A stretch of 64,000 nt of DNA, from NCBI GenBank assembly GCA_951406725.2, contig OX597824.1, forward strand, positions 17,856,001-17,920,000, written 5' to 3'. Within the stretch, counting starts at the first letter, position 1, and every line of letters begins with the position of its first letter. Of this stretch, positions 9,299 to 59,583 are shown piece by piece. This DNA is from Octopus vulgaris. Its lineage: Eukaryota. The position numbers and the translations under genes are program-made. The notes under the pieces are model-generated. The model had not been told where the DNA came from, did not search any database, and saw only the letters and a list, made by a program, of their open reading frames with translations.

Positions 9299-9850
9299 GG
9301 GCTAAATATAGAGGGGACAAACAAGGGCAGACAAAGGTTTAAATCGATTAAATCAACCCAGTGCGTAACTTGTGCTTATTTAATCGATCCCGAAATAAAT
9401 GACGAAAGATGAAGTCGACCTTGGTTGTGTCTGAACTCAGAACATAAAGATAGACGAAATACCTATTTCTTTACTGCCCACAAGGGGCTACACACAGAGG
9501 GGACGAACACGGACAGACAAACGGATTAAGTCGATTATATCGACCCCAGTGCGTAACTGGTACTTAATTTATCGGCCCCGAAAGGATGAAAGACAAAGTC
9601 GACCTTGGCGGAGTTTGAACTCAGAACGTAAAGAGAGACAAAATACCTTTCTTTACTACCCACAAGCGGCTAAACACAAAGAGGACAAACAGGGACAGAC
9701 AAGCGGGTTAAGTCGATTATATCGACCCCAGTGCGTAACTGGTACTTATTTAATCGACCCCGAAAGGATAAAATGCAAAACTGACCTCGTCGGAATTTGA
9801 ATTCAGAACGTAACGGCAGACGAAATAATGCAAAGCATTTCGTCAGCTTC
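9297..9850 (-). mobile_element. SINE family B trimer
   Basis: Three ~184-bp units joined by GACGAAATACCTATTTCTTTACT-type junctions; partial head at about 9850. Confidence 0.85.
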
Positions 9851-19721: not shown

Positions 19722-20352
19722 TAAGAACTAGCGGCAGACGAATACCTATTTCTTTACTACCTACAAGGGGCTAAACATAGAGGGGACAAACAAGGACAGA
19801 CATACGGATTAAGTCGATTACATCGACCCCAATGCGTAACTGGTACTGAATTTATCGACCCCGAAAGGATAAAAGGCAAAGTCGACCTCAGCGGAATTTG
19901 AACTCAGAACGTAACGGCAGACGAAATACCGCTAAGCATTTCGCCCGGCGTGCTAAAGTTTCTGCCGGCTCGCCGCCTTCGCCATCATGGAATATTCTTT
20001 TTTACTCTAGGCACAAGGCCCGAATTTTTTGTGGGGAGGAGGCCAGTCGATTAGATCGATTCCAGGACGCAAATGGTACTTAATGTATTGTCCCCGAAAG
20101 GATGAAAGGCAAAGTCGACCTCGGCGACTTAGAACGTAACGGCAGACGAAATACTGTTACGCATTTCGCCCGGCGTGCTAAAGATTCTGCCAGCTGGCCG
20201 CGTTTAAACGGTAGAAATATTCTTTTCTACTGTAGGTACAAGGCCCAAAATTTTGGGGAGGGGGGACCAGTCGATTTGATTGTTCCCAGTATGCAACTGG
20301 TACTTAATGTATCAACCTCGAAAGGATGAAAGGAAAGGTTGACCTCGGCCAC
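19722..20352 (-). mobile_element. Three adjacent SINE B copies
   Basis: Heads at about 19978 and 20200; young tail with unit junction at about 19741; older CTTGTGCCTAGAGTAAAA tails. Confidence 0.85.
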
Positions 20353-33043: not shown

Positions 33044-33583
33044 AAAAATGTATTTGGCGAGACATATTTATTTTTACTCTATCGGCAGTAAAAGTATTAC
33101 TGCAGATTTATATAATTCATATTCACTCCTGTTACAATCTCCTCGGAATGAGCAGAAAGAGTTGCTTCCCCCTGTTCTGGTAACTGTAGCGTCAATACCG
33201 TAACCAAATTTATCTTTTAATTATTTTCAAACATGAAAGCAAATTTGAAACGATGCAGACAATGCGACAAACAAATAGCTAGACAGTGCTCCGGGCATAA
33301 ACACCTATAGTTGCATACTAGGAGACACAAAGGAGAATCGTGTTGTAAATATTAATGTAAAATTGAATTCGGAAGAATAACCACAACGCTATCCCCAAAT
33401 CATCATTTCAACTTTTGCAAATGATGCTCGTCTTAAGAAGCTGGTCAATGTTTCTTTGTACAAAGTGTTTACCGAGATAATAACTGTAAAAGTGAAATAA
33501 GACAGGTGATTTATGGAGATAAACACTTAAAAAGGAATTATCGTGAGTCTTAGCTGATGGTTGGCAGAATATAAGTTTCATAA

Positions 33584-50324: not shown

Positions 50325-50749
50325 TACCATATATGAATTCACTCACACACTTCCATATACACATGCATACATAAACATATTCATATATATATATATACAG
50401 CATTTCCGATATTTAGGAAAGATTTGTAGTTGAATTATTTGCCCACGTTATTGTTTATTTGATCGCAGAATGGAGAGCTACATAATTGTCTGCGGTAGGA
50501 TTTAATCTTATAAACAAATGCAAGATTTCTAACCTGGCATCCTACCATTCTTATCAGACACCATTTAAATGCATTGATATCCAACATAAGGACGTAGTCA
50601 CATAATCATGTACAGTTGAATAGCCCCACTTTATTACGAGTACCTTGTCTATCAGCTCTGAAACATTACTTTCAAATTTTTGGCACTGCCCACCAATTTT
50701 CTACAGGAAATAAAGGTCGATTGCATCGACCCCAATGTGCTACTGATAC

Positions 50750-51533
50750 GGTGAGCTGGCAGAAACGTTAGCACGCCGGGCGAAATGCTTAGCGGTGTTT
50801 CGTCTGCCGTTACGTTCTGAGTTCAAATTCCGCCGAGGTCGACTTTGCCTTTCATCCTTTCGGGGTCGATAAATTAAGTACCAGTTACGCACTGGGGTCG
50901 ATGTAATCGACTTAATCCGTTTGTCTGTCCTTGTTTGTTCCCTCTATGTTTAGCCCCTTGTGGGTAATGAAGAAATAGGTATTTCGTCTGCCGTTACGTT
51001 CTGAGTTCAAATTCCGCCGAGGTCGACTTTGCCTTTCATCCTTTCGGGGTCGATAAATTAAGTACCAGTTACGCACTGGGGTCGATGTAATCGACTTAAT
51101 ACCTATGTCTGTCCTTGTTTGTTCCCTCTATGTTTAGCCCCTTGTGGGTAATGAAGAAATAGGTATTTCGTCTGCCGTTACGTTCTGAGTTCAAATTCCG
51201 CCGAGGTCGACTTTGCCTTTCATCCTTTCGGGGTCGATAAATTAAGTACCAGTTACGCACTGGGGTCGATGTAATCGACTTAATACCTATGTCTGTCCTT
51301 GTTTGTTCCCTCTATGTTTAGCCCCTTGTGGGTAATGAAGAAATAGGTATTTCGTCTGCCGTTACGTTCTGAGTTCAAATTCCGCCGAGGTCGACTTTGC
51401 CTTTCATCCTTTCGGGGTCGATAAATTAAGTACCAGTTACGCACTGGGGTCGATGTAATCGACTTAATCCCAATGTCTGTCCTTGTTTTTCCCCTCTGTG
51501 TTTAGCCCCTTGTTTGTGGTAAAGAAATAGATA
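50750..51533 (+). mobile_element. Young SINE B tetramer (one head plus four 184-bp units)
   Basis: TTTCGTCTGCC at 50798, 50982, 51166 and 51350 (period 184); units nearly identical. Confidence 0.95.
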
Positions 51534-52258
51534 CTTATTTTTATTGACCCCGAAAGGATGAAAGGTAAAGTTGACTTGGGTGAAATTTGAACGTGAAGAC
51601 TGACGAAATGCCGTTGAGCATCTCGCCCTTCTTGCTAACGACTCCGAAATAATGAAAAGCTGTTTGAATAGCAATATCGCAGTGGAATTTGAACCTCGAA
51701 TATCAAGAGCCGTTACTAAATACTGCATGGCAATTTGTCCAACGATATACCTATTTCTTTACTGCCCACAAGGGGCTAAACACAGAGACGACAAACAAGG
51801 ACCGACAAATGGATTAAGTTGATTACATTGACTCCAGTGCGTAACTGGTACCTATTTAATAGACCCCGAAAGGATGAAAGGCAAAGTGTCCTCGGCGGAA
51901 TTTGAACTCAGAACGTAACGGCAGACGAAACACCTATTTCTTTACTACCCACAAGGAGCTTAACACAGAGAAGACAAACAAGGACAGACGAATGGATTAA
52001 GTCGATTACATCGACCCCAGTGCGTAAATGGTACTTATTTAATGGACCCCGAAAGGATGAAAAGCAAAGTCGACCTCGGCGGAATTTGAACTCAGAACGT
52101 AGCGGCAGACGAAATACCGATGAGCCTTTCACCCATCTTGATAACGACTCTGAAATAATGAAAAGCTGTATGAGCAGTAATGCCACAGTGGAATTTGAAC
52201 CTCGAATATCAGGAGCCGTTAGTAAATACTGCATGGCAATTTGTCCACCGATATACCG
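51534..52258 (-). mobile_element. Old SINE B plus a SINE B dimer flanked by a ~150-bp direct repeat
   Basis: 51602-51751 duplicated at 52108-52258; two units lie between them. Confidence 0.85.
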
Positions 52259-58435: not shown

Positions 58436-59182
58436 CTGGGCAAATAATAGAAATGATACAGGGTGGATAACATCACTCTGGGATTCCTGCTGTGATGGTC
58501 AAAATTGGAAACGGCTTTCAATGAAAGTAAAGTAATTTCATTCCGTATTAAATTAAAGCGAAGCGATGCCTGCAGCACATTCAGTTTTCACAGCACAATA
58601 AGGAAGTCTCTACATGGTAGTTAGAACTGCTGGAAATACCAGCTAACCAACCTCAAAACGTACAATATGTAAATATTGGATGTAGTATTCATACATATCC
58701 TAATAAAAAGAGGATACTCATGACTGGCACAAAAAGCACATCTTTCATTTACACGGAAAAATGCGGGAGTCTTTAGATGGTAATTCAAATTTGTAGAAAT
58801 ACCAGCTAAGCTTCCTTTCAATCACACGCTACAGTCTTGGAATTACGATGGAAGTATTAGTTGCAGTATTCATACAGATACTTACAAAGTTGGGACGGTC
58901 GAGGATGGAAGGCTAAGGCTTATGCTTCAATAGACAAAACTGCCATTGATTTACAAACAATAGACATATAAACCTGTACATATTATTGGTGACACAATAT
59001 AGGATTTCAATGAATGATAACTTCTGAAGAATATAGAAATAGTGCCGTTCATTGAACAGAAGCCATGCTGTATTATATTCGTTCATACAATGATCCACGT
59101 GCGTACTTCCACAAAGCATGTATTTCTTAAATTTAAGCATTAAAAATACCAAAGCACTTACCAATGGTATTTATGTTTCAAA

Positions 59183-59583
59183 AGGCGACGAGGTGACAGA
59201 AACGTTAGCATGCCGGGCGAAATGCTTGTCTGTCCTCTCTGTGTTTAGCCCCTTGTGGGTACTAAAGAAATAGGTATTTCGTCTGGCATTACGTTCTGAG
59301 TTCAAATTCCGCCGAGGTCGACTTTGCCTTTCAAAAAAGAAAAAAAAAAGTCGAGCTGGCAGAAACGTTAGCACGCCGAGAGAAATGCTTAGCGGTATTT
59401 CGTCTGCCGTTACGTTGTGAGTTCAAGTTCCGCCGAGGTGGACTTTGCTTTTCATCCTTTTGCGGTTAATTAAATAAGTACCAGTTACGCACTAGGTCGA
59501 TATAATCGACTTAATCCGTTTGCCTGTCCTTGTTTGTCGCCTCTATCTTTAGCCCCTTGTGGGTAGTAAAGAAATGGGTATTT
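59183..59583 (+). mobile_element. Rearranged SINE B composite
   Basis: 17-bp TSD GGTATTTATGTTTCAAA at 59166-59182 and 59577-59593; head-tail-junction-body, then a second full copy. Confidence 0.88.

Follow-up and report, generated by a model that had tools for sequence, protein, structure and literature searches.

Short tandem arrays of a tRNA-type SINE in Octopus vulgaris and insertion of the element at a motif in its own head

An array in the window and its SINE family

The window, which is the whole stretch of 64,000 nucleotides of Octopus vulgaris DNA that was analysed, contains a tandem array of a SINE referred to here as family B (Table 1). BLAST and direct slicing resolve the array into a head at 50750–50793 and, from there to 51529, four units of exactly 184 bp, and TRF reports a period of 184, 3.9 copies, and 98% matches over 50794–51513. 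The first-pass annotation had described one A-box head and four units at a 184-nt period, which TRF, BLAST, and slicing all confirm; the start that it gave also stands, but its end at 51533 already lies in the 3′ flank. The head reads GGTGTTTCG, which corrects the earlier description. No differences separate units 2 and 3, unit 1 differs from both at 4 bases, and unit 4 differs from the others at 10–12 bases. In unit 2, 175C and 177A agree with unit 4, and 195T, 202A, 223A, and 225G, towards the 3′ end, agree with unit 1; within positions 173–177 both unit 2 and unit 3 carry two of three diagnostic bases as in unit 4. This mixture of unit 4 and unit 1 variants suggests that a dimer expanded twice would be the simplest history of the array. 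The array interrupts an older SINE copy of antisense orientation. The break falls at an antisense GGTAC site in degenerate form, GATAC. The GATAC duplication is weak, being 4–5 bp long compared with the usual 12–24 bp, and was missed by the automatic rule for target-site duplications (TSDs).

Table 1. Features of the array and its surroundings (positions are those of the window).
Feature	Position	Strand	Evidence
Piece of older diverged SINE (consensus ~134–167), interrupted by the array	50716..50749	−	BLAST 82%, sequence
Left copy of short putative TSD, GATAC	50745..50749	+	
Single SINE head (consensus 6–49)	50750..50793	+	sequence, BLAST
A-box-like TGGCAGAAACG in head	50757–50767	+	
Second junction site (consensus 17) within array head	50761	+	
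13-bp predicted RNA hairpin	50777..50806	+	fold z −4.14
Unit 1 (consensus 50–233)	50794..50977	+	BLAST
B-box-like GTTCAAATT in unit 1	50821–50829	+	
Unit 2, chimera-like	50978..51161	+	BLAST, variant table
Unit 3, identical to unit 2	51162..51345	+	BLAST, slicing
Unit 4, last, most diverged (10–12 differences)	51346..51529	+	BLAST, variant table
Right copy of putative TSD, GATAC	51530..51534	+	
Second piece of older antisense SINE (consensus ~22–136)	51532..51640	−	BLAST 76%
Adjoining independent dimer, same family and same junction	51752..52152	−	TRF, motif scan, BLAST
Junction 19-mer matches	9453, 33808, 50970, 51154, 51338, 51741, 51924, 59265		motif scan

Two samples were used. The unbiased sample comprises the window and 117 ten-kb stretches at fixed positions, with a total of 1.234 Mb (1.064 Mb in the earliest analyses), and the targeted sample comprises about 200 three-kb loci picked by exact patterns. 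Frequencies are taken from the unbiased set, and age and identity statistics from both sets after removal of duplicates and edge-cut loci; most array statistics rest on loci picked by exact junction patterns and are thus biased towards intact copies. Positions are numbered on a 233-bp B consensus built from 27 full copies, in which the main junction lies at 50.

According to SINEBase, a SINE is an interspersed repeat of less than 1 kb with at least 100 copies, a Pol III-RNA head, TSDs, and a LINE-related 3′ end (PMC3531059). The B consensus falls well within this size and is dispersed over every sampled contig; the junction 21-mer has 38,496 exact matches genome-wide, and about 200,000 3′ ends are extrapolated from 88 in 1.234 Mb. 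TSDs were found at 52 of 94 monomers and at 34 of 58 multimers, where they enclose the whole multimer as had been anticipated, and a stricter rule gave duplications of 12–24 bp in 61 of 163 cases. At the 3′ end, 35 of 42 nt match the end of the LINE family L264, a match that was partly selected by pattern. The consensus carries an A-box-like motif at 13 and a B-box-like motif at 77, both called with the usual box consensus sequences. No tRNA was predicted by ARAGORN, and an Rfam scan of 50600–51700 gave no tRNA match at E ≤ 10; a MIR8007 match in Rfam (33.6 bits vs. 195) was attributed to an inverted SINE pair. B is treated here as a tRNA-type SINE with a putative Pol III promoter recognised by motif likeness, and published octopus SINEs (OK/OR1/OR2, MetaSINE) may already name it. 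B was also seen at very high depth in assembled contigs of four differently labelled organisms (X2, X4, X5, and X8).

An older group, A, has three tail types; positions 1–168 are common to A and B and the tails differ. Divergence from the own consensus is 13–18% for A, compared to 6% for B. Head-to-tail chains of family A, joined via AT-rich tails with a period of ~225, occur at 19812–20349 of the window and at L176:1278–2200.

Multimers account for 39 of the 95 unbiased B loci, and unit numbers at the unbiased loci run from 1 to 6. The array at locus L010 has 7 units, and that at locus L155 has 6 units of a 217-bp type. If a SINE-derived satellite is taken to have at least four middle monomers and a unit shorter than the SINE (PMC10702118), the array at 50750–51529 falls short with two such monomers, and the L010 and L155 arrays would qualify. 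At L158:5950–6370, on the minus strand, tandem coding-like repeats that resemble C2H2 zinc fingers adjoin a SINE dimer.

Junction positions and the insertion target

The sequence across the junction of adjacent units recurs far beyond chance. Within the window, its 19-mer has 8 matches at up to 3 mismatches, compared with 0.02 expected, and the genome contains 3,487 exact 29-mers besides the 21-mers counted above, with 0 matches for the reversed controls. The proposed recurrence at independent loci holds for most of the positions that had been listed, but the join at 9640 is a degenerate one from 226 to 45, and at 19741 only ~17 nt of a second unit follow. What does not hold is a single fixed junction, because 48 junctions after the B 3′ end fall at position 50 in 34 cases, at 17 in 11, and at 66 in 3. 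The position-17 junction has 2,997 exact genome matches and builds 217-bp arrays of its own, as in L155, and among 62 arrays with at least two junctions, 17 and 50 are mixed in 23. The six-unit position-17 array of L155 (722–2031, 217-bp period) lies within one perfect 15-bp duplication.

The junction had also been placed in the loop of a hairpin in the head. The hairpin itself is predicted, but in the predicted fold its 3′ arm begins with the junction base 50794, which places the junction at the boundary of loop and 3′ arm. Similarly, the sequence does contain the palindrome GAAATA-GG-TATTTC, but shuffled versions of the 41-nt junction region fold just as well (z −0.46). The palindrome was rejected as a cause of the junction in view of this insignificant fold and of its absence from the 17 and antisense junctions.

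The junction base can be compared with the sites at which B inserts elsewhere. Among 58 3′ flanks of B scored as non-SINE, some of which may be short SINE remnants, 19 start with GGTA, 12 with TATA, and 4 with AGAA, against a GGTA background of 0.26%. When the antisense class is set aside, 40 TSD-verified sites give counts of 10 for GGTA and 5 each for AGAA and TATA, and 30 of these sites follow a pyrimidine. B thus targets GGTA after a pyrimidine and, less often, AGAA or TATA. Its own consensus contains six sites of the preferred type, including +17, +50, and −138; AGAA at 17 and GGTA at 50 (C/GGTA, with the slash at the insertion point) lie in sense and GGTA at 138 in antisense orientation, and all three are used. 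The junction base at consensus position 50 is accordingly the ordinary insertion preference of B. Antisense insertions at ACT/GGTACTT give 920 exact matches and show clean 9–19-bp duplications beginning with GGTA. Sense insertions of a full copy at 50, which leave two heads, give 51 exact matches; 16 of 23 such loci scored have an exact 8–17-bp duplication beginning at 50 (in 5 loci of the listing, the B end is out of range), and several show the variants of the old copy on both sides of the insertion. Together, the clean duplications at two-head and antisense insertions indicate that genomic DNA is cut at the motif, with or without a hairpin.

The motif is not uniform in quality: GGTATT is hit more often than GGTAC, with 8 of 657 vs. 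3 of 1,178 sites occupied. Pairing of a run-on RNA ending in GGTATTT was considered and found no support (p = 0.48), since GGTATTT at TSD mismatches is matched by the downstream copy in 11 cases, by the upstream copy in 7, and by neither in 4. No LINE was found at position 50, either in 26 non-head, non-tail cases or in the first 100 of the 8,282 matches in the genome. One subfamily of B, marked by 45G/50C and including 13 of 61 monomers (e.g., L127, L045, and window position 33583), has lost the GGTA target of its own head, and older A1/A2 copies have GGCA at the junction site; the loss in the subfamily could be an escape from invasion. A complex locus at 59182–59575 of the window, where an internally deleted unit, a 50-junction, and part of a unit occur with one more complete copy, is enclosed by one 17-bp duplication beginning with GGTATTT.

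Young heads, older last units, and the origin of the arrays

The units of one array are mostly unrelated copies. In two-unit arrays, the mean difference is 9.2% within and 10.4% between arrays, and in 34 pure dimers the median difference is 9.3%, with only 2 dimers within 2.5%. The units of a dimer are therefore about as unlike as random copies. The view that the junction does not come from local slippage of one monomer proved right, and slippage duplication of a lone monomer was rejected, because 23 of these 34 dimers have no private change in common between their units.

Furthermore, the last unit is usually the older one. Private divergence rises from 2.8% in first units to 3.8% in last units (p = 3e-4, 89 arrays). 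Age classes were assigned from diagnostic bases, with a monomer divergence of 4.3% in the oldest and 2.6% in the youngest class; the oldest class contains 29 of 58 last units vs. 25 of 123 first units, and the last unit belongs to an older class than the first in 37 arrays, to a younger one in 4, and to the same one in 16. Often the last unit is from a SINE family other than B, with a tail of another type: at 45 B-to-A junctions, the B unit diverges by 4.4% and the A remainder by 7.5% (p = 4e-5), the A part being not more diverged in 15 of the 45. The single head, on the other hand, is young. Heads before an A remainder have 21A in 12 of 16 cases, as do 57 of 75 monomers, whereas target-bearing A copies have 21T in 15 of 20; their divergence is at the B level, and positions 50–66 of one-head arrays are almost devoid of private bases of the old copy.

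One-head dimers outnumber two-head loci by 18 to 2 in the unbiased sample. Sense junctions at 50 exceed antisense junctions 42-fold (38,496 vs. 920), but ordinary 5′ junctions of the TSD type show no sense enrichment (51 sense vs. 107 antisense), so that the sense excess lies in the one-head products. Per site, 24 junctions were counted on 106 head sites, compared with 8 on 657 GGTATT sites; once the preference for GGTATT over GGTAC is taken into account, the excess related to homology is about 10- to 20-fold rather than 42-fold.

We consider it reasonably probable that the multimers form when a young B inserts into an older genomic copy, homology settles the 5′ end, and duplication at the DNA level follows. 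A LINE-type endonuclease would nick the old copy at 50, and B RNA would be copied by target-primed reverse transcription; the 3′ end of the cDNA could then anneal to the homologous old head upstream and displace it, which would yield a single head and a new body, followed by what is left of the old copy, inside the outer duplication of that copy. Homology-assisted 5′ joining is known for L1 and R2. Capture of the head in this way would make sense-strand events far likelier to complete than others. Repeated hits at head and junction sites would give mixed arrays, and inner units that are nearly identical or chimeric, such as units 2 and 3 of the array at 50750, probably come from unequal exchange or slippage between neighbours. 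A point against capture is that the new head and positions 50–66 fit it only if the cDNA strand wins. A comparison with cross-species contigs gave no pair of alleles from before and after an insertion; at L158, the site is occupied in one run, whose contig extends into the head, and two runs of another organism have no contig over the flank.

Signs of expansion at the DNA level are found within the longer arrays. In arrays of at least three units, 12 of 59 inner pairs are within 2.5%, compared with 1 of 19 among pairs formed with the last unit. Where private changes are common to the last two units, they are found further towards the 5′ end than those not in common (p = 5e-4, 8 pairs), as expected of unequal exchange, or of a truncated cDNA finished on the old copy. 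L010 has six near-identical units, yet its changes build up stepwise along the array and its last unit is of an old class. Head-only tandem repeats with periods of 59–69 bp, derived from two-head loci, were seen at L074/L075, L097/L098, and G000:C13:69036075–69036259.

A different account of the one-head dimers is read-through transduction, in which a two-head locus is transcribed through and the dimeric RNA is retrotransposed whole. The longest T run in the B consensus is 3, and without a T4 terminator Pol III would read from the young promoter into the old remainder. Such an origin predicts the wholly young head directly and the older last unit as well, and two-head source loci do exist. Whole arrays also lie inside fairly well preserved outer duplications: these were detected at 10 of 19 arrays ending in A (9 mismatches in 158 positions) vs. 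2 of 15 lone A copies, and mismatches number 6 of 182 for arrays ending in the old B class vs. 8 of 136 for old monomers. The better-kept duplications lean weakly, and not significantly, towards a younger insertion of the whole array. However, about nine products per two-head source would be needed (18:2), together with priming on old family-A tails in the time of B. Last units of different arrays have no excess of common private changes (0.13 per pair vs. 0.11 in monomers), an objection that is weak if the sources number thousands. Siblings were sought for two loci: at L029, where the first unit is almost consensus, a private 20-mer of the old last unit is single in the genome, and the last unit of L158 has no match above 96% among the 40 of 4,639 candidates that were scored. 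Transduction is a serious competitor to capture, although the less probable of the two as the main source of the dimers.

Reiterative template jumping, which the first-pass annotation had put forward, would have the reverse transcriptase halt at 50, where the cDNA end is primer-like, and jump to a second B RNA at its 3′ end. Template jumps in vivo are documented for R2 (PMC3414825), and unrelated adjacent units within one outer duplication are what this process would give; some junctions could still have formed so. It leaves the age polarity of 37 to 4 unexplained, because templates drawn from one RNA pool predict none. In addition, free copies truncated at 50 are lacking, the two unbiased loci that start at 50 following decayed tail sequence, and the two-head and antisense insertions show cutting of this motif in genomic DNA. 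As a general source of the arrays, jumping is improbable. Another possibility is a two-head insertion followed, much later, by a deletion between the heads. Heads do slip, as the tandem head duplications show, and the L029 head mixes the A-type 21T with 45G of the B subfamily. Later deletion, however, cannot make sense events as a whole more frequent than events at comparable targets, and a head that is partly old would be its usual product, whereas the heads before A remainders are at B-level divergence. It is on this account distinctly improbable. Least likely, and scarcely credible, is the proposal that reverse transcription rolls around a 184-nt RNA circle that opens at the anticodon-like loop; a processed RNA end is not supported either. 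Runs of near-identical units, six in L010 and units 2 and 3 of the array at 50750, are what a circle would produce, but the stepwise changes and old last unit of L010 already disagree with it. Neighbouring units are mostly unrelated, a single array may combine junctions at 17 and 50, and TSD-flanked insertions occur at the same base. Last units that are older, and that come from the foreign family A, could not be copied from a circle of B RNA. Heads are retained, 61 of 95 loci starting at position 13 or before, and a 184-nt circle would lack the head. The annotation was right that no hammerhead is recognisable: no hammerhead family matched at E ≤ 10 over 50600–51700 in Rfam, and the exact hammerhead core CTGANGA is absent from both strands of the consensus, the doubled unit, and the array. 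There is no sign in these sequences that circular RNA was involved.

If insertion with head capture is the correct reading, homology lifts the completion of retrotransposition ~10- to 20-fold and renews the promoters of old copies, and a tandem unit with a fixed junction becomes possible without ribozymes or circles. Whether B is, beyond this, a self-homing SINE, whose partner endonuclease has its best target in the promoter of the element itself and whose cDNA overwrites older heads by homology, seems to us an evenly balanced question; if it is, tens of thousands of decayed copies would have been re-headed in place and turned into chains.

Related repeat systems and the candidate partner LINE

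Several known systems resemble the B arrays in part. In crocodilians, SINEU-3/Tx1-Mar inserts at a site in Mariner-N4_AMi, its tandem copies are described as sequential insertions, and a Tx1-clade partner was inferred (PMC4494074). B is similar in having a preferred site inside an abundant repeat and in stacking by insertion, but SINEU-3 copies sandwich a TSD, whereas B targets its own head and most of its products are minus one head and the inner duplication. The TSD1-(SINE)n-TSD1 arrays of Scapharca broughtonii, for which unequal recombination was proposed (PMC11481361), also have a full tRNA head first, later units head-truncated at one position, and one outer duplication; they involve ~3% of copies and include inner units that are 3′-truncated too, whereas 39 of 95 B loci are multimers, their 3′ ends are complete, and the junction is the insertion motif. 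Squamate SINE satellites likewise have a tandem unit shorter than the parent SINE, but reach tens to hundreds of units, with unequal recombination and same-locus insertion both named as causes (PMC10702118); B arrays are scattered and short, with 1–6 units in the unbiased set, and usually combine copies that are not related to one another. Head-to-tail multimers of the rodent SINEs B2 and Dip and of Ves comprise up to about half of the copies (PMC8466645), with full-length units joined at the tail rather than, as in SINE B, by an internal join at a fixed head base. Metazoan non-LTR retrozymes have a type I hammerhead in each unit of ~170–400 nt and a circular RNA (PMC11722881). The 184-nt B unit lies in this range and is tandem and non-autonomous, but B has no hammerhead and shows a putative internal Pol III-type promoter, a LINE-like tail, and unrelated adjacent units; judged by the missing hammerhead, the B arrays would not be retrozymes. 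The main text of PMC13282606 does not mention SINE dimers or satellites, and a literature search, which stopped short of subscription papers, Repbase/Dfam entries, and some supplements, found nothing on self-insertion at an internal head site or on B arrays.

How the 5′ ends of non-LTR insertions are joined, and whether multimers arise by insertion into a previous copy or from a dimeric template, is left undecided in the SINE literature (PMC8466645), and the second of these choices is also the one between the two main rivals for B. Natural insertions of B at a single base number in the tens of thousands, and the genome supplies controls for them: the motif also occurs in antisense orientation, where homology is lacking, sense position 17 gives a further site, and families A and B differ in age. 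Repeat libraries will break up what a single process yields into numerous spurious "dimeric" families.

The enzyme that mobilises B is probably encoded by an L1/Tx1-like LINE, judging from sequence likeness. The terminal ~42–44 nt of unit 1 are similar to the 3′ end of such a LINE, young members of the L264 family encode endonuclease, reverse transcriptase (RT), and zf-RVT, and related LINE pieces terminate in B's own GGGTAATAAAGAAATA. A rarer LINE relative has exactly the same 16 terminal bases as B, yet no GGTA preference. In the comparison with the Tx1 clade, the domain order and the microsatellite target fit, and it is the LINE with the closest terminus that lacks the GGTA preference. Three tail-related LINE groups were considered as partner candidates, and none fits both tail and target. 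The young LINE family has 25,213 candidates, sits in (CTAT)n microsatellites, where it is often stacked, and ends in 42 nt that resemble the B tail; an intact young member, L294:2333–6903 (G000:C15), with L265–L293, has a 363-aa first frame and a 1,149-aa endonuclease-RT-zf-RVT frame. Several copies of the rare relative (L139 and L314–L339) are clustered on contigs C28 and C29, and five of them have a common 3′ flank, as segmental duplicates.
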